Shown: positions 844 to 42,524 of the stretch, one piece after another
Position numbering within the stretch: position 1 is the stretch's first letter
Layout: each line of letters opens with the position of its first letter
Assembly: GCA_963834795.1 (NCBI GenBank)
Contig: CAWIDL010000021.1
Coordinates: forward strand, 134,243-198,242
DNA length: 64,000 nucleotides
Reading direction: 5' to 3'
Origin: an uncultured delta proteobacterium
GTDB taxonomy: Bacteria; Desulfobacterota; Desulfobaccia; Desulfobaccales; 0-14-0-80-60-11
The notes under the pieces: model-generated
What the model saw: only the letters and a program-made list of their open reading frames with translations
Databases searched by the model: none
Told to the model about the DNA's origin: nothing
Position numbers and translations under genes: made by a program

Positions 844-2838
844 TCATGGTCTGGGCGGGAGCCGGGAGCCCTCCATATCCAGGGCTTCGCGGATACGGCC
901 GCCTTTAATAAAGGCCCTTCTGATGAAAAGAGGCCGCCCTTTGGTCTCGTCCATGATTTTGCCCACATACTCTCCCACCAGGCTGACGGCCAGCAAATTG
1001 AGCGAGCCGAATAGGATAATCAACAAAGTAACCAAAGTGATTCCCCGGGGGGCTGAGTGCGGGAACCACAGCCTTATGATAACGGAGGCAGTTGCCGTCA
1101 ACGCGGACAGGCCGAAAAGCAATAACCCCATGAAGGTCAGAAAGTTCAGGGGAGCCTGACTGAAGGAAAAGATGCCCTTTTTGGCCCATTGGAAGTTCTT
1201 CCAAAGGCTATTAGTAGAACGCCCGAACATCCTTTCCGGTCGTATATAGTTCACTCCCTCCTGCTTGAAGCCCACGAAGGCCCGCAGTCCCCTGAGAAAC
1301 ATGTCTCTCTCCGGAAAGCTGAGAAGGTGTTGGACCACTCGCTTGTCAATCAGGGAGAAATCGCCAGCATCCCTGGGTATGTCTATATAGGAAAACCGGT
1401 CGAACACCCAGTAGAAGGCCTTGTAAGCCAACTGCATGTACCAGGGAGCCTCGCGTTGCACCCTGCGTCCGTAAACCACTTCGTAGCCCTGGCGCCACTT
1501 TTCCACGAATTGCCCGATGATTTCAGGAGGGTCCTGCAGATCGCCGTCCATAAGCACGCAGGAGTTCTTGCTAGCCAGTTCCATGCCACTCCGGAAGGCA
1601 GCCTGGGAGCCGAAGTTGCGTGAGTGGCTCACACCAATAACCCGATGGTCCCGGTGACTCAGTCTGCGGATAACTTCTTCGGAGTCGTCCGGGCTGTTAT
1701 CGTTTACGAAGATGATCTCATAGTCAATTCCCAGTTTCATGAACTCCGCGGTCAGTCGCTCATATATGATGGGAATCGCCTGACCGTCCTTGTAGGAGGC
1801 GACTACCACGGAGACGCTATGGGTGGTGTCCAAATCGGTCTGTTTGCTGTACCGGCTGTATTGGATGGGGCTTTCCAGGGAGCGGAACCAGCCAATGGTC
1901 CGTTCCAGGCCCTGGCGTAAGGGGACCTGAGATTCGAACCCCAGCCGTTCCCGGGCCTTTTCAGGATTGCCCTCCCAGTTCGGCACGTCCCACATGCGGT
2001 CCGGCATGGTTTCAAAGATCGGCTCTGGCTCTATTTGGAAAATCTCCCGGGACAGGTTGGCAATATCACGAATAGTAGTCTTGTGGCCGCTGCAGATGTT
2101 GAAGGAGAGGCCGTAATCCGAGGGCTCCAGGTTCAAGGCGGCCAGCAAAAAGGCCCGGCAAACGTCATCCACGTAAATGAAGTCCCTGGATATCGCCGGG
2201 TTCACCAGAGCAGGCAGTCTCCCTTGCAAGCCCTCGGTGATTAGGGTGGGAATCAGGCGAGATGGATCCTCATAGGGGCCATAAACCGAGTAGAGCCGGA
2301 GATTGGCGCAGGCCAGCCCACGGTGCTTGCCGGCGAAATACAGCAAAGCTGAAGTGGCTGACTTGGAGACGGCGTAGTTACTATTGGGGGTGGGAGTTGC
2401 CTCTTCGGTGGGTCGGTAAGCGTTGACCCCGTACTCCGAAGAAGAGCCCGAATGAATATAGCGGACTGACCTTCGTTGGAGAAGAAGCTCTACCAGGCGC
2501 ACGGTGAGGTTGAAGTTGGTGCTGTAAATCAGGCTGCTATCGTTCTGAAAGGAGTAGGCGCCGTAGGCCAGGCAGTTAAAGACGGTCTGCGGCCGAACCT
2601 TGTCAAGCAACCGCTCTAGATTGTCCCGTTGGAGCAGGTCCCCCACCATTATGTTGTCGGCAGGGCTCCCCTCCAACCGCCAGGCAGGCATGACGGAAGC
2701 GGTGCCGTAGACTACGTCGCTCGAGTTTTGGAGGAGGCGGAAAAGATTGGACCCTATGAATCCACTAGCTCCCAGGACTAGCACTGGGCCGGGTAATTTA
2801 CTGGCCAGTTCAATAGGTTCCACTTCTGTCTGTTCCAT
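844..2838 (-). CDS. fusion protein: N-terminal NAD-dependent epimerase/dehydratase (SDR) + C-terminal family-2 glycosyltransferase with C-terminal TM helices
   Basis: 664 aa. N-terminus has the Rossmann motif VLGASGFIGSNL and YAVSK (YxxxK). The C-terminal half has VSVVVASYKDG, NDNSPDDS and DGDLQDPPE (GT2, DPM1/ArnC-like), followed by hydrophobic helices. Confidence 0.85.
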   Translation of the reverse strand: MEQTEVEPIELASKLPGPVLVLGASGFIGSNLFRLLQNSSDVVYGTASVMPAWRLEGSPADNIMVGDLLQRDNLERLLDKVRPQTVFNCLAYGAYSFQNDSSLIYSTNFNLTVRLVELLLQRRSVRYIHSGSSSEYGVNAYRPTEEATPTPNSNYAVSKSATSALLYFAGKHRGLACANLRLYSVYGPYEDPSRLIPTLITEGLQGRLPALVNPAISRDFIYVDDVCRAFLLAALNLEPSDYGLSFNICSGHKTTIRDIANLSREIFQIEPEPIFETMPDRMWDVPNWEGNPEKARERLGFESQVPLRQGLERTIGWFRSLESPIQYSRYSKQTDLDTTHSVSVVVASYKDGQAIPIIYERLTAEFMKLGIDYEIIFVNDNSPDDSEEVIRRLSHRDHRVIGVSHSRNFGSQAAFRSGMELASKNSCVLMDGDLQDPPEIIGQFVEKWRQGYEVVYGRRVQREAPWYMQLAYKAFYWVFDRFSYIDIPRDAGDFSLIDKRVVQHLLSFPERDMFLRGLRAFVGFKQEGVNYIRPERMFGRSTNSLWKNFQWAKKGIFSFSQAPLNFLTFMGLLLFGLSALTATASVIIRLWFPHSAPRGITLVTLLIILFGSLNLLAVSLVGEYVGKIMDETKGRPLFIRRAFIKGGRIREALDMEGSRLPPRP

Positions 2839-3454
2839 TGCGCTTCCTCAAAAACGAGACATTTCTGCCGCATTTTGGTAAGTATTGGGCCCTGAGAATA
2901 TTCTGGACCCCCCCCTGGCCAGGACGGGTCACCGCCCGGATATCTGCCAGATGGTCACCTGGCTGGCCGGCCCTTGCCACCAGCGCCGCAGACTGGCCGA
3001 AGGTGAGATTTTTTAGGGTATTTCGGCATATTCGACAAGCAAAGTAGCCTTGGTTTTTGAAATAGTGCTGCTGAAAACTGCTGGATTTGTGGTGGTCCAC
3101 AAGGTATTAATGATAGCGAGACGGTTATCCTCAGGGTTAAGTCTCATGGCGAACTTATCCATTACATTGGCTCCAAACTCAAGAAAATCGGCCCTTCCGG
3201 CAATGCCGCTGAACGGTAAAAAGAGGCGGTGCGGTATTTATTGGACATAATCACTGCATTGGGTGGAGCTTTTTTCCGGAGGTAGAGCATTGATTGCAAC
3301 TCATTCGGGGAGAAGCTGACCTTTGCCGCCAGGACGATGACACGCAACGTCCTGATCAGCCGGTCGCTTTCCGGACAGGCCAGCACGGCATCCATGACTA
3401 CCCGTAATTTTTTCATAGACTTTATAAATACGCAAGAGCGATAATGTAATTCAC

Positions 3455-4099: not shown

Positions 4100-4166
4100 G
4101 TCATGCTTTGTCCGCATTCTAGCTGATGAAGGCACTCAGTTTGTTGTCCACCGAGGGCAAGTGCGC

Positions 4167-10022: not shown

Positions 10023-10310
10023 TCACCGGCAGTTACGGCTGCGGCGGCCAAAGGAGCATTTTGACTGCGGCCAATCTTCCTTGACTACCAGGAGTCGCCC
10101 GCCTACCAGCCGGCCACTGAACATGGAAATGGCCTTTTGGCCCCCCTCTTGGGTTTCCATAGACACAAAGCCGAAACCACAGGTCTGTCCGTTGTGCAGA
10201 TAAGTGATAATCCTGGCTGAGGCTACCAGGCCGGCCTCAGAAAAAAGGGTCTGCAACTGTTCTACGGTCATTTGATGGGGGAGGTTGCCCACGGATAATC
10301 TTTTACTCAT
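10023..10310 (-). CDS. RRM-type RNA-binding protein
   Basis: 95 aa with RNP2 LSVGNL and RNP1 CGFGFVSM. Confidence 0.9.
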   Translation of the reverse strand: MSKRLSVGNLPHQMTVEQLQTLFSEAGLVASARIITYLHNGQTCGFGFVSMETQEGGQKAISMFSGRLVGGRLLVVKEDWPQSKCSFGRRSRNCR

Positions 10311-10601: not shown

Positions 10602-10805
10602 CTAAAGTTTCACTACGTTTTGGGCCTGATCGCCCTTGGGACCCTTGACTACCTCAAACTCCACTGCCTGGTCTTCACTCAAGGAGCGGAAGCCCTCGCC
10701 CTGGATGGCGCTGTGATGCACGAAGACATCGGGGCCGTTATCCCGGCAGATGAAGCCAAAACCCTTGGAATCATTAAACCATTTTACCGTACCAGTTTCT
10801 TTCAT
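10602..10805 (-). CDS. cold-shock protein (CspA family)
   Basis: 67 aa: [15 protein letters not shown]...DVFVHHSAI. Confidence 0.95.
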
Positions 10806-11990: not shown

Positions 11991-13664
11991 TCATTTATCC
12001 TGGATAGCGCTGGAGGAAGAGAGTTCCAAGGGGGTTTCCGATAACCTGCCCTGGAGCGCCGCGGGAACCTCTAGCTGCCGTTCCTTGATGATGGCCGTGG
12101 CCTTTTCCCGCACTATCTCTCTCATGTCGAAAAGGTCCTCTCCCTCAACGCAGGTCACGAAATATTGCTTGAACCGTGTCGGGTTTTGTCTCCACATCCC
12201 GAGCAACTGGGTCCAGACCTGACGCCGGTACGACGGCCGCAACCCTTGCCACCAGAGGATTTTAAAAAACGCCTTAATTTCGATTAATATCCGGCGCCAA
12301 GTCAGTCCCTGGTCGGGGACGCGGTCCTTTGGCAAGGCGCCCCCTGCGGCGACCGCCTGGGCCCGGCGAACCGGCCGCATGGCCAGATAATAGCGGTAGG
12401 CCCTCGCCAGGTAACGGGATGGTTCGTACAGGTAGTCCCAGGCCTCGACGTATTCCTGCATGATCTCGGCTTCCGGTCGGTCAGGTTCGTAGTTCAAGGC
12501 TGAGAAGGTACCCGCGTCATCTCCCACATCCAGGCGCAGCCGCCCTTCTTTCTCCAATCGATGCCACAGGCTGGTATGCGGCGAGGCCTGCAGGACCCCA
12601 AGCATGGCCACGGGGATGTCAGTCTGTTCTATAAAGGCGCAGATGCGTTCGCCGGCCCCTTTCGTTTCCCCGTCCAGACCGATGATGAAACTGCCAATAA
12701 CCTCCATGCCATTCTTCTTGAGGGTGTACAGCGATTCTAGGAGCGGGTTCTTGATGTTGTGATATTTGTGGCTGGTTTGCAGTACATTCTCATCCGGAGA
12801 CTCGATCCCGATAAAAACTTCCCTCAGGTTGGCCGCGGTCATGAGGTCGATCATTTCCGGATCCTGCCCCAGGTTCACCGAGGCCTGCGTCAAGAACCTG
12901 TAGGGTTCACCCCGACTCCTCAACCAGGGGGTGAGTTCTTGCAGGAAGGCCCGGGCGTGCTTCTTACTGCCGATGAAGTTATCATCGCAAATGAACGCGG
13001 ATCCCCTGGCCCCTAGCCGGTGGAGGGTCTCCAGTTCGGCGATGACCTGCTTCGGGGTCTTGTAACGGGGCGTGCGTCCGAAAAGGTTCACCACATCGCA
13101 AAATTCGCAGTCAAACGGGCATCCCCGGGAAGTCTGAATCGTAAAGGTGACGTAATCTTTCAGTTGCAACAGATCAAACCGCGGGATCGGTGAGGTCGTC
13201 AGGTCCGGCTTTTCGCGGTTTTCGATTATCCCGGTCTTTCCGTGTCTCATCGCCTCCAGAAGCAAAGGAATCGTATTCTCGCCCTCGCCCCGCACCACAA
13301 AATCACATCCCGCCTCCAGGACGGCCTCAGGGAGGGAAGTGGGATGGGGTCCTCCGGCTACGACGGTTTTGCCGCGGCGCTTGGCTTCTCTCACCAGGGC
13401 CAACAAGCCCGCCCTTTGAATGTACATGGCCGATATCAAGATCAGATCGGCCCACTGCCAATCTTGTTCGGTCAGGCTTCTGGTGTTGAGATCCGCCAGA
13501 CGCAGTTCCCATTCCGAGGGCAGCAAGGCTGCCACCGTAAGCAAACCCAAGGGTGGATTAACCGTTTTAGCACCCAGGAGCCGGCAAGATTTCTGGAAAC
13601 TCCAAAAGGAAAGGGGAAATTCGGGACATACCAACAAAGCCCGCATAGCTGTAAAACTCCTCAC
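11991..13664 (-). CDS. B12-binding domain-containing radical SAM protein (DUF4070-type C-terminus)
   Basis: 557 aa with an N-terminal cobalamin-binding-like domain, the radical SAM cluster motif CPFDCEFCDV and a long conserved C-terminal extension. Confidence 0.9.
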   Translation of the reverse strand: MRSFTAMRALLVCPEFPLSFWSFQKSCRLLGAKTVNPPLGLLTVAALLPSEWELRLADLNTRSLTEQDWQWADLILISAMYIQRAGLLALVREAKRRGKTVVAGGPHPTSLPEAVLEAGCDFVVRGEGENTIPLLLEAMRHGKTGIIENREKPDLTTSPIPRFDLLQLKDYVTFTIQTSRGCPFDCEFCDVVNLFGRTPRYKTPKQVIAELETLHRLGARGSAFICDDNFIGSKKHARAFLQELTPWLRSRGEPYRFLTQASVNLGQDPEMIDLMTAANLREVFIGIESPDENVLQTSHKYHNIKNPLLESLYTLKKNGMEVIGSFIIGLDGETKGAGERICAFIEQTDIPVAMLGVLQASPHTSLWHRLEKEGRLRLDVGDDAGTFSALNYEPDRPEAEIMQEYVEAWDYLYEPSRYLARAYRYYLAMRPVRRAQAVAAGGALPKDRVPDQGLTWRRILIEIKAFFKILWWQGLRPSYRRQVWTQLLGMWRQNPTRFKQYFVTCVEGEDLFDMREIVREKATAIIKERQLEVPAALQGRLSETPLELSSSSAIQDK

Positions 13665-14015
13665 TAACTGATAGTCGGCGGCAACCAGACGCTGGCTGCC
13701 TTAACTTAGGTGATCTGAACTATTTTTCGAACTTCGCAACCATCCTCCTTGCGAAATTAACCCGACTTGTGAGAAGCATGATATCACAAAACTTTCCCAA
13801 AACCTCTCTCCGCAGTTTTTAGACGCCAGAGAAGATCAGTCCAGATCTGATTTCCAGCCTAATAACCCGAATAGCACCGATTGATAATGATAAGAAATGA
13901 AAGGCGAGGAGAAATAAACCTACTACGTCGCCTGGAGGCATCGACTCTGCTCTCAACCTTATTATCTGGTGGAGCGGGTATTTAGCTATTTTAAAAGATA
14001 AGCCAAGATAGCGAA

Positions 14016-14668
14016 GTCGAGTAGCGTGGGGGAATCTCACCCCCACGCCCTCACAGATCCGTACATGAGCCTCTCGGCTCATACGGCTCCTATCGACCAG
14101 CCGCAATTACCTGGCCTTGCCTTACCCAATGGCTCCTCCCATTGCTGGTTGGCCACCAAATAAGGCTGATCGATACAACCCCTTCGCTCCATCCCCATTA
14201 CGGGACTTCCTCGCTACTACGGGTTGTTCCGCCCCTGTGCCCCGCCTCGGTACTCTCACTCTCATGGGTCCTCCACTTGAGTTTCTCCCTTCACATCGGG
14301 ACGACAGGTTCCCACGTTCCGCACAAGAGCCTGGTTCAGGTTCACGCTACCTTTATGCCGGACGCCACCCAGGCAGTAAGCAGGTTCCCCCTGGGTTTGT
14401 CCTGGAGTCAAGATAGCCTCCAGTTTTGACGTCGTCTTTAGTGTTTCGACACCTCATCAGTGGTTCGCTGGTGCTCGTCTCCCTGAACCTCACCTGCCAC
14501 GGTCTTTAGCCATGACTTTCCCTTAACGCGCACCACCCTGGCTCTTTACCAGCGCAGCTTAAGGTGGTTTGGAGCCTGCTCCTGCAAGCCGGCTCCGGGG
14601 GGTCTGCCCCCATCTCTCGCGCAGTTGCGCACGCCTTCCCTATAACACCAAGCGCGCTCGTGGCGCAC
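14016..14668 (-). ncRNA. ORF-less group II intron ribozyme (5' boundary uncertain)
   Basis: Canonical 34-nt domain V at 14056-14089 (minus strand: GAGCCGUAUGAGCC-GAGA-GGCUCAUGUACGGAUC) with the AGC triad, a GNRA loop and a 2-nt bulge. A domain VI helix with a bulged A follows, ending ...CUACUCGAC at 14016. GUGCG 5' candidates lie at 14668, 14632 and 14533. No reverse-transcriptase ORF is present. Confidence 0.7.
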
Positions 14669-14726
14669 TATCTTGCTACTTTCAAAACTTTTTAAAAATT
14701 GCCAAAATTTCAAGGTCCTTCCGGGT

Positions 14727-14980
14727 TTAGCGTGGGTAGAGGCTGAGTCCCCCGCAAAAGAAATAGATGGCGGTTTTGAAATGCTCTTTGTTTCTATAGC
14801 CACAGGCCCGGCGCTTGATGGCCATGATCTTTCATAAAAGGAGATTATATGGCAACCTTGGTCACCGTGCTCAAAACATGGTTGTGGGACCTTGCGTCCA
14901 GGGAACAATTCTAAAAAGGTCTCTCTTCTTTCGGCCAAATCATCTTGTGGGAGCCAGGATAGCACAAATTTCCATCAAAT
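14727..14980 (-). pseudogene. ISL3-family transposase remnant
   Basis: Frame at 14727-14831 reads [34 protein letters not shown], the characteristic ISL3 transposase C-terminus. The upstream part is frame-broken or deleted. Confidence 0.65.
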
Positions 14981-15695
14981 TATATCTTTCCCCGCAGGTT
15001 TTGAACATAACACCGCCTTGGTTCGGAGTTTTTGGTATGGCGTGGGACTATGAACCCCAGGCCATCACCGCCCGATGATAATGGACTAAAGGAAAAGAAG
15101 AGCGAATTACTCGCCACGAATGGGACTTATCGGTGGAATGGGAAAAATTGCAGAGATGAGAAGGATATCTGGTAATTTTCATCCTCTGATAAGTATTCGG
15201 ACAATAGCAGAACTCAACAATTTCAATCTTCAGCTGCCGCTTTAATCACCCGATAATAAGCGTTGCCATGGCCAACGGTCCGGTTGCGAACACTCCGTTT
15301 AGACGAGGCGACCATGGCCAGAGGCTTGCCACCTCGCGCAAGATAGCGTCTTAAGAAAAGCGGCCTCTGGGGAGGAACACAGAGGGCACCTCGAGAGCGA
15401 TTCCGTTGCTGGGTTGGCCCTACCAGTCCGAAAAGTACAGATTAAAATATCAGGGATTCCCCGAGATAAAAATCAGGTTTATTCCAAGGCTTTCCCAGCC
15501 TTTTCCCAATTGCCTTAGACCCCAGGATGCTATTATTTTCATCAGATTGGGGATTTTTTACCCTACTGACAAGAGAGATCGGATGGTTTAAAGCGGGGCT
15601 CTCGCTTCTCCTGGGCTAAGCTCAGGAGTACCCCGGTTTCTCCCGGCTATTATTTGGTTCTTTGGCCGATTGGCCAGTTCCAGGAGGATGGCACT

Positions 15696-17766: not shown

Positions 17767-19168
17767 TCGCCGTTAAAATCAATTTTCTCCAAGAATTACA
17801 TATCCCACCTCAGCAAGTAAATATTCCATCACTGTTAAGCAACAGATCACTCCTATGGTCAAAACCAAGTAGCCAAGCCCCCCAGTATTCATTTTCGTAA
17901 ATAATCCAAGCCCGCCGACTATTCGTGGTTCTCTTTCTGGGTGGAACTGCAAGGAATCAAATCCAGGTACATAAGATGGGGGCCGATGTGCATTAGCTTG
18001 CCACTATACGCCCTTCCGCTAATCTTTCCATATGATTTATATATTGAAAAGCCTTTGCAAATGTAATTCGGATTTGGCAATTTTCTCGAAAAATTGAAAA
18101 ATCTCAGGGGCGATCATATTTCCCCGGGGAGAGGGAGTCCCAGCCCGAGGTTCCCGGATTCAGACCAAAGCCAGAGGTGCGGAACCGGACGGTGCTGACG
18201 CCAGAAGCAGCAAGCATTGAGGAATCGGCACGGGATGACGTGGCTCTGCTCCTGGCCGACCTCGCCCGCCGCGAGCACCGGCACCCTGAAATGCGCCCCC
18301 AAACCTCCCTTCGGAAAGATAAATCTACGGCGCACAGGGCCACTCACAGCCCCGCCACGGCCCGCAAAGGGGCAATCAAGGCGGAAATGGGGGGGGCTGT
18401 GAAATGTTTAAATCGCCGCAGGAAGGCCCCGCCAGCCTGCTATATTTTGCTCATAAAATTTTTGGGCCAGACCCATAACTGGGGGGGGCTGAAAAAAGAA
18501 ATTATGAAAAATTTGGCGGACAAAGCATTGACTATAGGGGGGCGGTAGGAGTCCCACTAGGGTTATGGGTTCCAGGGCCGAAAATCCTTCAGGCCAGGAT
18601 CGGGCGGGGCCGGAGCAACCGGCCGGGGGTGCTGGTGCACCACAGAGGCAGGTGGTGGACGGCAACGCGGACCCAAGGAAGGAACGCACCAGGCACCCTA
18701 TCCCAATGCCCCTCTCATCTCCGTTTACCTTTGGGGGCTCGCTTCCCCTCAAACGACCCTCTTAGAAGTCCTGCATTGAACGGAAAGGCCCACCCCTTAG
18801 CCTACCCTTGCCCCGGGGCCAATCGCTTAAAATTCCCCACCTGGACGGGGGAGAACTGGGAAATCGAGGACCTCTGAGATAGGATTATCGCCCTGCCAAG
18901 AAAAACGGCCGCATGAGAAGCGCCAGGAAGGGTGACTGAGACGCCCCCCTTGTCTATCACCTTCACACTATGGGGAGCGGCAAGGCTGGCCAGGGAAGTT
19001 TCGCAACTTTAGCAACTTTCGCAGAGGGTAATCCTCAAAACTGATTTTGTGGCCGGGTGAAGCTGTCTCCCCCGGTTAATTTTTGGCCTTGAAAGGGAAA
19101 TCATGCACACTATGTGCACACCGCAAAAAAGCCGGGTTAACCAATTTCAACTAAGCCCTTGAAATTAC

Positions 19169-35882: not shown

Positions 35883-36071
35883 AAAATCGTCCTTAACCTG
35901 CTTAAATTACTAAAGATAATTTTCAGAGACCCCCGAACGTTTCACCTTTCCGTCCACCTCCAGCAGCGCCTGACCTGCCCCCCAAAAACTGGTCCAAATA
36001 TTAAGTTAGAGATAAGCAAACCGATTCGAGTGGCGCGAGAAATGTCACCGCCTCCCCGCCTTAAGCAGCTA

Positions 36072-37184
36072 GTACTTAGTTGCATAAATCAGAGATACGA
36101 TTAGCCAAGCCTTTGGGATAAACATACCTTTTCCGCCATTGAAACGGTGCGGCTTGTGGATTGTAAGCCTGGACGAATTTATCGATAGCCTTCCTGACTT
36201 GTTGGGGGGAGGTGAAATTAGCCCCTTTGAGGGCACCGCGGCTGAGGATGCTGAACCAAACCTCGATTTGATTAAGCCAAGAGGCAGAAGTTGGAGTGTA
36301 ATGGAATTTAACCTGGGGATGCCTCTTCAACCACATATCGTTTTTGGGCTTATGGGTATTGAGGTTGTCTAAAATCACATGGAGTTCCTGATCAGGATAG
36401 TCAGCCAATATCTGGTTCATGAAGTCCAGAAATTCCACCCGCCGCCGTCGGTTATAGTGACCGGCTTTTACCTGACCGGTAGTCACTTCCAGGGCGGCAA
36501 ATAACGTGGTGGTGCCATGCCGCTTGTAACCGTGACTGAACCCCGTCAAGGTCTTGCCATTGGGAAGTTTCAGCCATCCCTGCGCTCTTTCCAGGGCCTG
36601 AATCTGGGGTTTTTCATCCACACAGATGACCACGGCGTTCTCCGGCGGGTCCAGGTAAAGTCCCACAATGTCCGCAGCCTTGCGGGCAAACTCGGGATCG
36701 GTGCTGACGCACCAGCTCCGGCGGCGTTCAAGACTGATGTTATGGCGCCGCAGGATGCGCCAGACCTGATGCTTGGTAACGTCACCCAAGGCTTCGGACA
36801 GAAGCCTGCCGTTCCAGCGGGCATAGCCTTCGGGAGGCGGTTCGTCCAGTTTTCTCAGCACCCGTTTTTCCGTGTCCTGCCTGTAGCTGCTGGGCTTCCC
36901 CGGTCTTTGGGCATCTTCCAAACCGGCCAGGCCTTCGCTGGCAAAGCGGGTCCGCCACTTGCTGACGGTGTTGGGGCGAACCTTCAAGTCCTTGGCAATG
37001 CCGCTGGTTTTTGCTCCCTGCGCCGCCGCCAAAATAATGCGAGCCCGCAGAACCTGGCGCTGTTCAGTTTTACTGTTACGTATCCTGGATTCGAGAATCC
37101 TACGGTCATCATCCGTCAATTGAATTTGAGTCGCTCTCATAATCGAGAGCCTATCATATATCGCTAATTAAAGCAACTATATAC
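36072..37184 (-). mobile_element. IS630-family insertion sequence (copy 2, different lineage from copy 1)
   Basis: TIRs GTACTTAGTTGCATAAATCAG (36072-) versus the reverse complement GTATATAGTTGCTTTAATTAG (-37184). TA duplications lie at 36070-36071 and 37185-37186. Length 1,113 bp. Confidence 0.85.
36076..37140 (-). CDS. IS630-family transposase
   Basis: 354 aa, intact, with N-terminal HTHs (RILESRIRNSK..., IAKDLKVRPNTVSKWRTRF) and the DDE core (VICVDEKPQIQALE, HVILDNLNTHK, TPTSASWLNQIE). Confidence 0.95.
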   Translation of the reverse strand: MRATQIQLTDDDRRILESRIRNSKTEQRQVLRARIILAAAQGAKTSGIAKDLKVRPNTVSKWRTRFASEGLAGLEDAQRPGKPSSYRQDTEKRVLRKLDEPPPEGYARWNGRLLSEALGDVTKHQVWRILRRHNISLERRRSWCVSTDPEFARKAADIVGLYLDPPENAVVICVDEKPQIQALERAQGWLKLPNGKTLTGFSHGYKRHGTTTLFAALEVTTGQVKAGHYNRRRRVEFLDFMNQILADYPDQELHVILDNLNTHKPKNDMWLKRHPQVKFHYTPTSASWLNQIEVWFSILSRGALKGANFTSPQQVRKAIDKFVQAYNPQAAPFQWRKRYVYPKGLANRISDLCN

Positions 37185-37309
37185 TAGACTGGCTCTATGC
37201 CAATAGAAGATTACTTGCCAAGAGCTACCCTTATCGGTGGTGGGGGAAAAATTCCAGATATGATTTGGCTAGCGAATTGGGGCTTTGGTGGAGGATTCAA
37301 GATTATTAC

Positions 37310-39499: not shown

Positions 39500-41077
39500 T
39501 TATAAAACATCGGTTAGCGCATCCAGTTTTTCAAGAAGCGGTAGCACACAACGATTCCGAAGAGCATTCATTATATCTTTTGTGATAACCTTTGTCTTCT
39601 GGATATCACCCCATTGCTCTCGAAGGTCAATACTGCCAATCGTGCTTGAAATACCGACCAATCCTTCGGCTCCTTTGTCATCAAGGATGACAGGGATTAT
39701 GTGCTCTTTACGACCTGATTGGGTCATAATGTCCTTTTCGTATTTGGTCCATACCTTGTCCCGGTAGTTTTGGTCAAGAAAGGCGAGATAGTATCGGCAT
39801 GATTCAGCATAGATGCGTCCTAACGTTTGTTCCAAATCTAAAGCAAGCAAGAAAGCCTGCTGATCGTAGTCATAAAACGTTACAACATCTTCGGACTTGA
39901 GCTCTGAGTTGACAGCCTCAACAATCTGCCTTGCCTCTCCAGCGAATGAGAATCCTACATCGTAGGAGAAAACTTTTGAGCGTTCTACGCTCTCATTTTC
40001 GATGCCTAGGTCTCGGTAAAGATCCTTCGACTCGAGGTAAGATAGGAAATACCGAAAGAGCGGATCTTCGATAGAGAAGCCACCTTCGGGATCGAAAGCA
40101 ATCTGCTTTCTGAGATCAACTTGCTTCAGGGGATCGAAAATCACTTCGGCAATGCGAGGACGTATTGCTTTGATTCCTGGCTTCCGACGATCTGGAACCA
40201 TGTTTAATATCTTATCGTAAGTTACAACTGAGTCGGGTATCCGGCATACTGCTAGCAGTACCTCGAGATAAGGTTTATTTCCGCCAGGCCGCCATTTCTT
40301 GCCCTTGGCGAAAGTCCTTGCGATGGGCATGTACCGCTGCAAAAGCTCGGTCATCAAACGCTGCCGTATTGATAGAAGATCGAATGTTAATATCTTTACA
40401 TCTTCTTGGGTCTCAAATACTTCTTGCGAAGAACAGATCTTGTTGCAGATATATTGAGCAAGCCAAAAGTTTCCCGCACTCTCACTCAGCAAGATATCAC
40501 GGTCTTCGAATATAATATTTAGAGCTTGTTCCCCTGCATCAATCAGGCGGTCGATTTCTCTGTCCTTGGCTTTTGGGAAGCGATAGTTTCCAAGCCTGGG
40601 TCCGAGGTCATAGGCATCAGAAAGTAACGATAATCCAGTTGTTGGAATCCCAATTAAAATGGTTTTCGGCGGCGACGCCTGCTCAAAAGCACGATCGCTT
40701 AAGCGCTTGAGGCTTGCTCCAATTTCTGCTCGTTTTTGGGTTGTAATGAGATGAAAATCATCAACAACAATTATTGGAGGGGCTGGCCGGGTGCTACAAC
40801 TGGTGGTTTCAAAAAAAAGGTTAATCTGGTTCTCAGCATCGTCATCGCGGCAACTAATGTAATTGTAGTCAAGGTCTTTTTGCCAACCCAGTTCTTCAAA
40901 GACTTTGTAGACTATGCAAGTCTTGCCTATTCCAGAGGGACCTTCGATCAGGAGATGTTTGCCCGGCTGCTCAATGTCGGCGCGTACCTCTCCGTAATAG
41001 GAGGGCTTGACGTAGGTATAAGGCGGTAAACCCACGGTTTTAAATACCTCTGTCAGCTGTCTCTTTTCCAACATCAT
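39500..41077 (-). CDS. P-loop ATPase fused to C-terminal TIR domain
   Basis: Walker A LIEGPSGIGKTCIV and Walker B PIIVVDDFH. C-terminal TIR: YDVGFSFAGEAR...VTFYDYD...YYLAFLDQNYRDKVWTKYE...IIPVILDD. The ATG at 41077 is preceded by GGGAGA; the track's GTG alternative is at 41092. Confidence 0.8.
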   Translation of the reverse strand: MMLEKRQLTEVFKTVGLPPYTYVKPSYYGEVRADIEQPGKHLLIEGPSGIGKTCIVYKVFEELGWQKDLDYNYISCRDDDAENQINLFFETTSCSTRPAPPIIVVDDFHLITTQKRAEIGASLKRLSDRAFEQASPPKTILIGIPTTGLSLLSDAYDLGPRLGNYRFPKAKDREIDRLIDAGEQALNIIFEDRDILLSESAGNFWLAQYICNKICSSQEVFETQEDVKILTFDLLSIRQRLMTELLQRYMPIARTFAKGKKWRPGGNKPYLEVLLAVCRIPDSVVTYDKILNMVPDRRKPGIKAIRPRIAEVIFDPLKQVDLRKQIAFDPEGGFSIEDPLFRYFLSYLESKDLYRDLGIENESVERSKVFSYDVGFSFAGEARQIVEAVNSELKSEDVVTFYDYDQQAFLLALDLEQTLGRIYAESCRYYLAFLDQNYRDKVWTKYEKDIMTQSGRKEHIIPVILDDKGAEGLVGISSTIGSIDLREQWGDIQKTKVITKDIMNALRNRCVLPLLEKLDALTDVL

Positions 41078-41351
41078 ATTTCTCCCAAACACGCCACCCA
41101 GCGCGAACCGTTCTTCCCGAGGTTAACCCCGAGAAGATTCCTCTTTTTGTGGCCAAATTGTCTTGTGGAGGGCATGATAGCACAAATTTTGAATGGCAAG
41201 GTATCTTTTTTGAGAATTGGCCTTACCAACCTCTTCCATAATTAGCGATCACTTGCCATGATCGGCTCTCATCGTAGGAGCGGTGAAAATACGAGATATG
41301 ATCTAAATTTCTATAACTACCATTTCAAAACGGTTCGAGGCATCGCCAAAC

Positions 41352-42524
41352 CTATTTGGCTTCAATAAGTTCCTCTCGCTCTAGCACACGACGAACTTCT
41401 TCGAAAACTGCTTTTATGTCTCCCTTGGGGAAGCGAATCTGCCCCAGGCCCTCGATATTGCTGAACTCCTCGCAACCTTCCTCCAGTAGTATGATAGCTC
41501 TTGAAAATCCAAGACGTCCTTGAAACAGGCCTGCCTCGTGAACAACATTCATTCGCGCATGATGCTTCCCGTCAGCTTGCTCATCCTCCCCAGTCATGAT
41601 CAAAAAAGCAATAGCCGCGGCATCAAGCATCTCAGAAAGACGTGCAATATTCGTTAGCCCAGCGACAGGCACTCGATTGAACTCGTCCCAGGGCAAGCGC
41701 AATCGGTCCTGGACGAAGTCTTTCAGCTCCCGCCAGATCGGGGAACGTCCGTGTCCGATAAAGACGTTCGTGCCTATCTCCCGTGAACGTTTGGATCGTC
41801 TCTGTTGCCGAGCGAGGTGCGAACCGGCCTTCTGTGCGAGCTGAGCCAAGCGACTGCAGGCGGCTGGTGCTTGCCTGAGGGTGGTGACCTCAGAGAGGAC
41901 TAAAAGGTGGGGCGGCACCTGAAGACCTTGTGTTACAGCCATGGAGTCTCTCGACATCAACGGTCTAGAAGGCAATAACTGATGAAGCACTTGATCTTTT
42001 GACTGGATAGCTGCCTGTTCTACCTGCTCCCTGAGAGACGTGATGAAGGGGTCCTCTCGTTCAGCCAGAGCCGTAGTCAAAATGGATAGTATATCCGGCT
42101 TGCTACTCTGGAACGAGCTTTCTGCACTGGACGCCAGGTGTCGGGCCGGTCCCAGGTCCGGGTTCCCTGCGATTTCGTATATCGTCCTCTCGATATCGTC
42201 GGGATCGTACTCGACCCACTCACCCTCTGTTGCTACGACTGGCCATACGCCCTTCATCCCCCATTCTGGGCTGAAATGGGCCTGCGGCGGGGGCGGCTTG
42301 AGATCCTTGTAGTAGATTCGGGCATGATATCCGAGGCAGGAGCCACTCCAGGCCTTCCTAACGCTAGCAGCTGCCTCCTCCAGACGCTCCAACGGTTCTT
42401 TTACTTCGGGAGCGGTGGCCTTCTGCGACAGGTCCCCGAGCCTCTCGGCAATCTCAAACAGTTCTTCGCTATGGTCACTTGTTGCCATCACGGTAGCCGT
42501 CTCCCTTCCGTCCTCTGATGTCAT
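41352..42524 (-). CDS. protein with unknown N-terminal domain and C-terminal TIR-like domain of the Cap12/Pycsar-effector type
   Basis: 390 aa. The last ~135 aa (NVFIGHGRSPIWRELKDFV...AIAFLIMTGEDEQ...HARMNVVHEAGLFQGRLGFSRAIILLEEG...SNIEGL) follow the pattern of the 'predicted nucleotide-binding TIR-like' family. Confidence 0.75.
   Translation of the reverse strand: MTSEDGRETATVMATSDHSEELFEIAERLGDLSQKATAPEVKEPLERLEEAAASVRKAWSGSCLGYHARIYYKDLKPPPPQAHFSPEWGMKGVWPVVATEGEWVEYDPDDIERTIYEIAGNPDLGPARHLASSAESSFQSSKPDILSILTTALAEREDPFITSLREQVEQAAIQSKDQVLHQLLPSRPLMSRDSMAVTQGLQVPPHLLVLSEVTTLRQAPAACSRLAQLAQKAGSHLARQQRRSKRSREIGTNVFIGHGRSPIWRELKDFVQDRLRLPWDEFNRVPVAGLTNIARLSEMLDAAAIAFLIMTGEDEQADGKHHARMNVVHEAGLFQGRLGFSRAIILLEEGCEEFSNIEGLGQIRFPKGDIKAVFEEVRRVLEREELIEAK

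Follow-up and report, generated by a model that had tools for sequence, protein, structure and literature searches.

Can a group II intron that has lost its protein gene still be a working mobile element, or is it a relic in decaying intergenic DNA? This question is raised by a locus in the window analysed here, a 64,000-nt stretch of contig CAWIDL010000021.1 (GCA_963834795.1, an uncultured delta proteobacterium), in which a preliminary description made from the letters alone had placed a group II intron without an open reading frame (ORF) at 14016-14668. We confirmed that the element running from 14668 to 14016 on the minus strand is a complete group II intron of 653 nt without a reverse transcriptase (RT)/maturase gene; the coordinates had been exact, and the strand had been left implicit. 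We put at roughly 80% the probability that it is a non-autonomous class D intron, transcribed from upstream and bound, spliced and mobilised by the RT/maturase of a full-length sibling. Intron position p corresponds to window position 14669 - p throughout.

Group II ribozymes are recognised by a domain V hairpin of about 34 nt with an AGC (or CGC) triad, a 2-nt bulge and a GNRA loop, by a bulged A in domain VI 7-8 nt from the 3' end, by termini of the form GUGYG...AY, and by pairing of exon-binding sites EBS1 and EBS2 with intron-binding sites IBS1 and IBS2. We searched the window with Rfam at gathering thresholds. The results showed that the domain I core (14611-14492, -) matches group-II-D1D4-2 (RF01999) with 107.4 bits (E 4e-21, model positions 1-118 of 118), and that domains V-VI (14091-14016, -) match Intron_gpII (RF00029) with 57.8 bits (E 1e-8, gathering score 40), each over the full model length. 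No further group II intron was found within the 64 kb, either at the curated thresholds or in a permissive rescan. In the RF00029 alignment, domain V (14056-14089, -) is the 34-nt hairpin GAGCCGUAUGAGCC-GAGA-GGCUCAUGUACGGAUC, with the AGC triad, a 5-bp upper stem, the GAGA loop and a 2-nt bulge. Domain VI and the 3' end (14016-14053, -) carry the bulged branch-point A at 14022, 7 nt from the last intron nucleotide at 14016. Both domains are as first described. The terminus ...CUCGAC (...CUACUCGAC) agrees with the family 3' consensus. The 95-aa ORF at 13819-14106 (-) is, as had been proposed, only the translation of domains V-VI and the downstream spacer.

The intron boundaries were set by family alignment and by covariation between EBS and IBS. 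Three GUGCG candidates had been offered for the 5' end; the outermost (14664-14668, -, first G at 14668) was retained and the other two were discarded. More than 100 family copies align with it as GUG[CU]GCCACG, and the CAAGAUA directly 5' of 14668 is the perfect complement of the EBS1 loop UAUCUUG. EBS1 (7/7) and EBS3 (1/1) match the flanking exons, and domain I is recovered within a six-domain fold, so that neither of the two outcomes named beforehand as fatal to the intron, an isolated domain V-VI fragment or an unpairable 5' end, was obtained.

We then folded the intron and compared it with its relatives. The minimum-free-energy structure shows six domains at -288 kcal/mol, compared with -243 +/- 6 for shuffled sequences (z = -7.0). 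An RNAalifold consensus of 20 ORF-less copies contains 177 pairs; compensatory changes, also in domain IV, back 94 of these, and the window copy keeps 175 of the 177. The intron appears to be a structurally intact ribozyme, and we infer that it splices.

Whether the missing gene had been lost or had never been present was left undecided at first, with the remark that no RT/maturase ORF fits the space. Domain IV (14092-14174, -) indeed has only 83 nt, and the best tblastn hit with the protein of a full-length relative, L159, has E 2.6. We aligned this domain with full-length relatives (L012, L159, L052/L066 and others). It consists of a basal stem AUCGAUCAGCC/GGCUGGUCGAU backed by compensatory changes, a conserved CAACCAGCAAUGGGAGGAGCC hairpin (also written CAACCAG..AUGGGAGGAnCC or CAACCAG..GGGAGGAGCC), a UUG start codon at 14129-14127 and a deletion junction. 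In the full-length relatives, ...GGUCAACCAG..AUGGGAGGAGCCAUUGAGUAAAGCAAAGCCGUUU... provides the ribosome-binding site, the start codon and M-S/N-K-A-K/R-P-F, and the ORFs finish ...CGGCUGGUCGAU immediately before domain V. The window domain IV reads ...GGCCAACCAGCAAUGGGAGGAGCCAUUGGGUAAGGCAAGGCC, AGGUAAUUG and CGGCUGGUCGAU in succession; the ribosome-binding site GGGAGGAG, the UUG and codons G-K-A-R-P are retained, followed in frame by the final few codons of the gene. The resulting 16-codon frame (M G K A R P G N C G W S I G A V, stop; 14079-14129, -) fuses N- and C-terminal RT/maturase remnants: its beginning resembles MNKARPF of L159 and MSKAKPF of L052/L066, and its C-terminal part is the end of the L012/L066 ORFs. 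An intermediate form of 748-755 nt, present in L119 (93% identical, in a Desulfobaccales metagenome-assembled genome, MAG) and in L157, still holds protein residues 378-416. The alignment of domain IV with full-length relatives extends to codon 6 and resumes in the last codons, which makes the window intron a deletion derivative rather than a naturally ORF-less intron. The gene remnants decide for this half of the earlier proposal; its other half, dependence on a trans-acting protein, we infer. In introns that have been studied, the protein binds mainly to the domain IV hairpin that carries its ribosome-binding site and start codon (domain IVa), and the CAACCAGCAAUGGGAGGAGCC hairpin, which holds the ribosome-binding site here, is presumed to be a putative protein-binding site.

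To place this copy among others, a 36-mer spanning EBS2 was used, which retrieved 26 JGI metagenome contigs. At least 10 further contexts (L147, L151, L154, L155, L156, L158/L164 as one locus, L160, L163, L165 and L166), whose flanks are mutually unrelated, hold a 653-nt copy that is 92-97% identical and shares the junction GCAAGGCC[A/G][G/U]GUAAUUGCGGCUGG. The 653-nt copies differ by a compensatory pair in domain V, which is U-A in the window copy as well as in L145 and L166, and G-C in the others. The ORF-less form itself has multiplied, the window copy being one member and not a one-off deletion. An independent Logan contig, with a radical SAM gene identical to the one downstream of the intron in the window, breaks off 30 nt into the intron, consistent with a repeat.

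A protein-encoding sibling of this form was also found. L159 is 1862 nt long, with an intact 416-aa ORF that has the YADD motif and lacks an endonuclease domain; it is 94% identical to the window over intron positions 1-556 and 91% over domains V-VI. In L144 and L141 the sibling is damaged, and L149 runs off its contig end. Some 653-nt copies have themselves been invaded by other group II introns: an ORF-less one of about 625 nt at position 363 (L143:463-1067), one of about 2.0 kb with a 464-aa RT at position 453 (L146:306-2342, with L153 broken at the same position), and one of about 2.0 kb with a 512-aa ORF at position 352 (L152:1818-3809). The 464-aa and 512-aa proteins are only 33-37% identical to the L159 protein.

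To define how the intron recognises its exons, we located the exon-binding sites by covariation over about 70-110 copies. EBS1 is intron 254-260 (14409-14415, -), the UAUCUUG in the loop of hairpin GGAGgcUAUCUUGaCUCC, and forms 7/7 Watson-Crick pairs with exon -1 to -7. Across the family, the mean best 6-nt pairing at EBS1 is 5.69, compared with 4.57 (maximum 4.76) for exons reassigned between copies at random, and column covariation ties intron 254-260 to exon -1 to -7. EBS2 is intron 226-230 (14439-14443, -), CACUA within ACACUA, according to covariation across 108 non-redundant copies; its columns 226-228 covary with exon -9 to -11, leaving exon -8 as a single unpaired linker. A by-eye guess that EBS2 was the UUACU at about intron 289-295 was dropped, since that loop (CCUGYUUACUG) is constant whatever the exon. 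EBS3 is A316 (14353, -), the partner of which is IBS3, the T at 14015 that opens the 3' exon (A-U in the window). Position 316 and exon +1 are Watson-Crick partners in 82% of 73 copies, compared with 51% expected, and position 261, beside EBS1, has almost no covariation signal with +1. The complementary stretch of the 5' exon (14669-14681, -) comprises IBS2 AAGUA (14681-14677), the linker G (14676) and IBS1 CAAGAUA (14675-14669).

The insertion site of the lineage, ..UAGUGGCAAGnUA/U (the slash marks the insertion point), is the 5' exon consensus of the lineage and lies at the end of a motif of about 60 nt. All 653-nt copies share the 5' exon ...(U)AGUGGCAAG(C/U/A)UA, also written ..GGCAAGnUA, and the target of the window intron is UAGUGGCAAGAUA/U, or in longer form UAGUGGCAAGAUA/UUCG. 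Most copies have EBS1 UAGCUUG at CAAGCUA sites, and the window copy has UAUCUUG at CAAGAUA. This altered guide with its matching target would represent retargeting.

To survey the wider family, we gathered relatives with the 17-mer GGAACGUGGGAACCUGU, a lineage marker at the junction of domains I and II (14304-14320, -), which retrieved 6 viral loci or contigs and at least 120 genome loci. Among the matches listed, to which the counts in this paragraph refer, 82 copies have both ends; 26 measure 624-748 nt, about 50 measure 1831-1985 nt and the remainder carry insertions, the length distribution being bimodal. In a neighbour-joining tree of the ribozymes, short copies are interspersed with long ones across several phyla, and the Desulfobacterota clade holds 16 short and 10 long copies. 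The deletion end-points vary between lineages, and in every short copy the deletion spared the basal stem of domain IV and the CAACCAG..AUGGGAGGAnCC hairpin, together with the start codon and 4-6 codons. ORF-less forms appear to have arisen many times independently. One Vicinamibacterales MAG contains at least 7 copies of a 698-nt form together with at least 5 full-length copies. The first 44 nt seemed to be lacking in several relatives, which proved to be a MAFFT artefact; only an optional hairpin of about 31 nt after position 11 is absent.

Other arrangements were seen in the wider family. Many copies, among them L012, L025, L029, L042, L076, L117, L139 and L140, are inserted exactly after the YADD codons of other RT genes (5' exon ..TACGCGGACGACT/GTGCG), giving nested and head-to-tail introns (e.g. 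L076, L140). ORF-less copies form head-to-tail arrays at L112:3533-4793, L105:5510-6466 and L129:1-2981; in L112 a copy starting at 4145 follows one that ends at 4146. In the viral contig L012 (1045-3741), a stretch of 2.7 kb with an opposite-strand 898-aa ORF interrupts a related intron's RT gene; it may be an insertion or an assembly chimera.

The class of the intron follows from its exon recognition and its relatives. In IIB introns, EBS3 lies in domain I apart from EBS1 and pairs with 3' exon +1, whereas in IIA introns delta lies next to EBS1. EBS3 of the window intron, at 316, is away from EBS1 and pairs with +1, indicating an IIB-type ribozyme. Class D introns encode proteins of about 400-420 aa that are limited to RT and X domains. 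The L159 protein is 54% identical over 406 aa to that of E.c.I9, whose ribozyme also aligns with the window intron; with the proteins of the nested introns of other kinds the figure is only 33-37%. E.c.I9 belongs to class D, in which introns measure 1805-1887 nt (Table S1, PMC3552965); the full-length relatives (1831-1985 nt, among the matches listed) match these sizes. The L159 protein is also 67% identical to a 419-aa multi-copy protein of Sinorhizobium meliloti, and the ribozyme is about 77% identical over domains I-III to the multi-copy introns on S. meliloti megaplasmids that go with this protein. RmInt1 and RmInt2 are multi-copy class D/IIB3 introns of S. meliloti with 419-aa proteins that lack D/En domains (PMC5894124, PMC4615759), and RmInt1 has a single-nucleotide IBS1-IBS2 linker (PMC4615759), as does the window family. 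The S. meliloti matches could not be confirmed as RmInt1 itself, their flanks being an RT gene or other insertion sequences (ISs). Because they could not be named, E.c.I9 was taken as the class D anchor. Assignment of the window intron to bacterial class D, structural type IIB3 (RmInt1 group), appears well supported, on pairwise identities and shared features and not on a reference-set phylogeny.

These results suggest the following course of events. An ancestor of about 1.86 kb would have carried in domain IV the gene for an RT/maturase of about 416 aa without an endonuclease domain. An internal deletion took out nearly all of the gene and spared the basal stem and the hairpin with its ribosome-binding site and start codon. 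The 653-nt RNA would still fold, be bound at the domain IV hairpin by a sibling protein made elsewhere in the cell, and be helped by it to splice as a lariat. The lariat-protein particle would reverse-splice into DNA sites picked by pairing of EBS1/2/3 with IBS1/2/3, and the sibling enzyme would copy the intron into DNA without second-strand cleavage, as endonuclease-less class D introns are copied (PMC5894124). The window copy would have landed at a site fitting its variant EBS1, inside a multi-copy promoter-like motif and beside an ISL3 fragment; if co-transcribed with the radical SAM gene, it would sit in the 5' leader of that gene. A multi-copy target would explain proliferation, as IS elements do for RmInt1 (PMC5894124). 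The ribozyme anatomy, the conserved fold, the deletion origin, the multiple insertion sites and the intact sibling are direct observations. Use of a helper, mobilisation in trans and the role of the hairpin would follow the Thermosynechococcus precedent (PMC2882425) and domain IVa binding in other introns.

We examined the surroundings of the intron for what they reveal about its insertion. The adjoining ISL3-family remnant that had been reported is real and tiny (14714-14831, -): it comprises the last 34 or so codons (14831-14730), the stop codon (14729-14727) and the right inverted repeat ACCCGGAAGGACC (14726-14714), which is comparable to ACTCGGAAGAGCC in L169. It is 76% identical to the C-terminus of a Solidesulfovibrio transposase and 58% to annotated ISL3 transposases (Pfam PF01610, E 0.0036). 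Of a complete ISL3 element, with a DDE transposase gene and inverted repeats ending GGCTCTTCC-like, only this fragment was found. The ISL3 end was ruled out as the intron target: 45 nt separate 14714, where the right repeat stops, from the insertion site, and the sequence upstream of the other intron copies holds no transposase remnants. Since the 5' exon of the intron is outside the IS end, the remnant is a mere neighbour.

The homing site is instead carried by a degenerate copy (14669-14713, -) of a promoter-like motif of about 60 nt (..GGCAAUUUUU..GUAGCAAGAUA), recognised by aligning the 5' flanks of 20 intron copies. The motif, (C)CAGAUCAUAUCUGCAAUUUUUCCC-N7-8-CGAUAAG-N9-10-GUGGCAAGnUA (as DNA CAGATCATATCTGCAATTTTTCCC..CGATAAG..GTGGCAAGnTA), precedes about half of the other copies in that alignment. 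The window holds at least 5 unoccupied copies, all on the minus strand: a target-like one, GUGGCGAGUAA/UUCGCU (15107-15178), found by blastn with the 5' flank of L163; a variant site, UAGUGGCAAGCUA/AUG (17994-18061), 89% homologous to the site occupied in L165 and L119; and copies at 37267-37208, 41305-41247 and 43222-43172, with a partial one at 39363-39310. The copies in the window follow a terminator and precede minus-strand start codons by 60-155 nt. The motif is called promoter-like on account of this position between terminator and gene starts, which would suit a promoter. A simple sigma-70 consensus scan did not call it, and sigma-54 and sigma-28 promoters were rejected, because most copies have a GG/GC spacing that is one off and none has a TAAA box at the right distance. 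At several metagenome loci the next gene is convergent.

Two other features of the window touch this motif. An apparently complete IS630-family element (36066-37197, -; 354-aa DDE_3/HTH transposase at 36076-37140; repeats CTAGTATATAGTTGC and GCAACTAAGTACTAG) lies just downstream of a motif copy; the motif is not the end of this element, whose inverted repeats lie inside, downstream of the motif. At 39500-42524 (-), two adjacent TIR genes, encoding an AAA/STAND-like ATPase with TIR_2 (530 aa) and a CAP12/Pycsar-type TIR effector (390 aa), each have the motif in front, and this pair is likely an anti-phage defence locus.

Downstream, as first described, and on the same strand lies the gene for a 551-aa B12-binding radical SAM protein with DUF4070 (11991-13646, -; Pfam), whose start codon is 369 nt after the intron. 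A look-up of the protein gave a match from the ATG start, 6 codons after a GTG, and none from the GTG. L154 has the same intron, and its positions 2696-3371 are 88% identical to window 11969-11294, in the genes beyond the radical SAM gene. In L154 only 140 nt separate the intron from those genes; the 2 kb comprising the radical SAM gene with its leader is missing, and the upstream sequence also differs. This layout suggests that rearrangement may have occurred at intron copies. The joined exons (window 14685-13985, -) could form a 9-bp hairpin, AGCAAGAUA/UUCGC/UAUCUUGGCU, followed by the U-run UAUCUUUU (as DNA AGCAAGATA / TATCTT-G-GCT and a T-run), the arms of which are split by the intron; the EBS1 loop sequence GCTATCTTG recurs in the 3' exon. 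A hairpin and a T-run are likewise present at the empty site 15115-15101 (within 15115-15092, -). A few kb further downstream are genes for a single-RRM RNA-binding protein (95 aa, 10023-10310, -) and a cold-shock protein (67 aa, 10602-10805, -), which as far as can be seen are unrelated to the intron.

Several points weigh against a mobile intron served by a sibling protein. Tblastn with the L159 protein, which covered the 64-kb window, found no RT there, and any helper in the same cell is hypothetical. The siblings L159, L149 and L144 stem from other metagenome samples, and short and full-length forms were seen in one genome only in the Vicinamibacterales MAG, which represents a different sub-lineage. 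EBS2 pairs weakly with the window exon (3/5, AAGUA), compared with 5/5 in L119 (UAGUG). Facing the G of the domain V AGC triad, at window 14058 (intron position 611), the window copy has an A (G x A), as do many of its clade; the rest of the family has U (G.U). The identity of 92-97%, and not 100%, between the 653-nt copies indicates that their spread may be old and that the window copy may no longer move. The family counts come from a sample seeded by one 17-mer and not from a census, so that the one-third fraction of ORF-less copies is not unbiased, and the class assignment draws on pairwise identities and shared features.

Some of these points would fit a dead relic, an intron that lost its protein gene, neither splices nor moves, and decays in intergenic DNA; that the adjoining ISL3 element is also a fragment agrees with this. 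The G x A was dropped as a diagnostic of inactivation: it is common to many clade members, including the protein-encoding L070, L077 and L137, and weighs less against activity for this reason. Decay would moreover bring unpaired changes, whereas 175 of 177 consensus pairs are intact and the differences between copies include compensatory pairs in domain V. EBS1 has changed to fit its own exon perfectly, and the same deletion form occurs at many sites. We consider a dead relic unlikely. Still less likely, in our estimate, is an intron that only splices and has been co-opted to control the radical SAM gene from its 5' leader, independent of an intron protein, as proposed for C.te.I1. The position would suit it, 369 nt ahead of the start codon, in the same orientation and downstream of promoter-like sequence, and so would the 9-bp hairpin with U-run of the joined exons, which is impossible while the intron parts the arms and has a like at the empty site 15115-15101. 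However, at other loci the element adjoins unrelated, often convergent genes, and the intron without the radical SAM gene in syntenic L154 argues against a dedicated functional link. The protein-binding hairpin is also kept in every independent ORF-less lineage, which points to dependence on a protein.

That bacterial group II introns can be ORF-less, arise by domain IV deletion and be mobilised in trans is already established. In Thermosynechococcus, 17 ORF-less introns derived from one deletion are mobilised by the proteins of related introns (PMC2882425). Like the window intron, TeI3 of Thermosynechococcus elongatus has a single domain IV deletion that left N- and C-terminal ORF remnants, and like the window family, TeI3/TeI4 show EBS sequences diverged to new targets, ORF-less copies that outnumber full-length ones, and some nesting (PMC2882425). 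However, TeI3/TeI4 are chloroplast-like IIB introns with endonuclease-domain proteins (the 'driver' being TeI4), confined to one thermophilic cyanobacterium, and their trans-mobilisation was shown experimentally. The window intron is of class D/IIB3, without an endonuclease domain, from Desulfobacterota-type hosts known from metagenomes; it is known as sequence, and in its family the loss recurs across lineages and phyla. RmInt1 and RmInt2 resemble it in protein size (419 aa, compared with 416 aa in the sibling), absence of D/En, the 1-nt linker and multi-copy, non-essential targets, and their delta-ORF constructs, with the protein supplied separately, are engineered mobile donors (PMC5894124, PMC4615759). 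Unlike it, they are natural full-length introns that target ISs (ISRm2011-2, ISRm17), whereas the window intron is a natural deletion form whose lineage targets an intergenic motif of about 60 nt.

Other known ORF-less introns differ in their setting. The intron in Trichodesmium dnaN and others (Simon et al. 2008 and the Zimmerly database, as cited in PMC12584367, PMC4424553 and PMC3245105) are in housekeeping genes, where splicing is needed, whereas the window intron is intergenic. C.te.I1 of Clostridium tetani (PMC4424553), likewise a bacterial group II intron that is ORF-less and lacks a nearby RT gene, splices robustly on its own, and its genome contains no related protein gene, whereas the window intron has a 94%-identical protein-encoding sibling in related samples and a conserved hairpin. 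Archaeal introns, both ORF-less and RT-encoding, that home into the ORFs of related introns (Dai and Zimmerly 2003, as cited in PMC4424553) resemble much of the wider family, inserted after YADD codons, in contrast to the window's own lineage, in which RT genes are not targeted. ORF-less introns have been called rare in the literature, and in a genome census 7-12% of bacterial group II introns were without a protein gene (PMC8919778), whereas among the matches listed about one in three complete copies of the window family is ORF-less.

What is added here is a natural class D example from uncultured Desulfobacterota-like hosts. Less ordinary, as far as a biased sample suggests, would be that deletions of convergent form recur across phyla, that short forms locally take such a high share and that homing is specific to a motif. 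A wider idea, which we hold tentatively and regard as rather doubtful, is that class D introns of Desulfobacterota and several other phyla include a large number of overlooked 'mini-introns' of about 650 nt, which would be non-autonomous retroelements comparable to short interspersed nuclear elements or miniature inverted-repeat transposable elements, produced by recurrent deletions that spare the hairpin and locally outnumbering their autonomous parents, with the window lineage perhaps specialised on the promoter-proximal motif. If this were true, motif-specialised copies would land just downstream of the transcription start, with a 5' exon barely holding IBS1 and IBS2. For annotation, the 95-aa domain V-VI ORF is spurious, and the radical SAM leader may carry a 653-nt intron. 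For gene-targeting work, the family would offer natural minimal class D ribozymes together with the matched 416-aa L159 protein. The finding also bears on how shared trans-acting splicing machinery may evolve from selfish introns.

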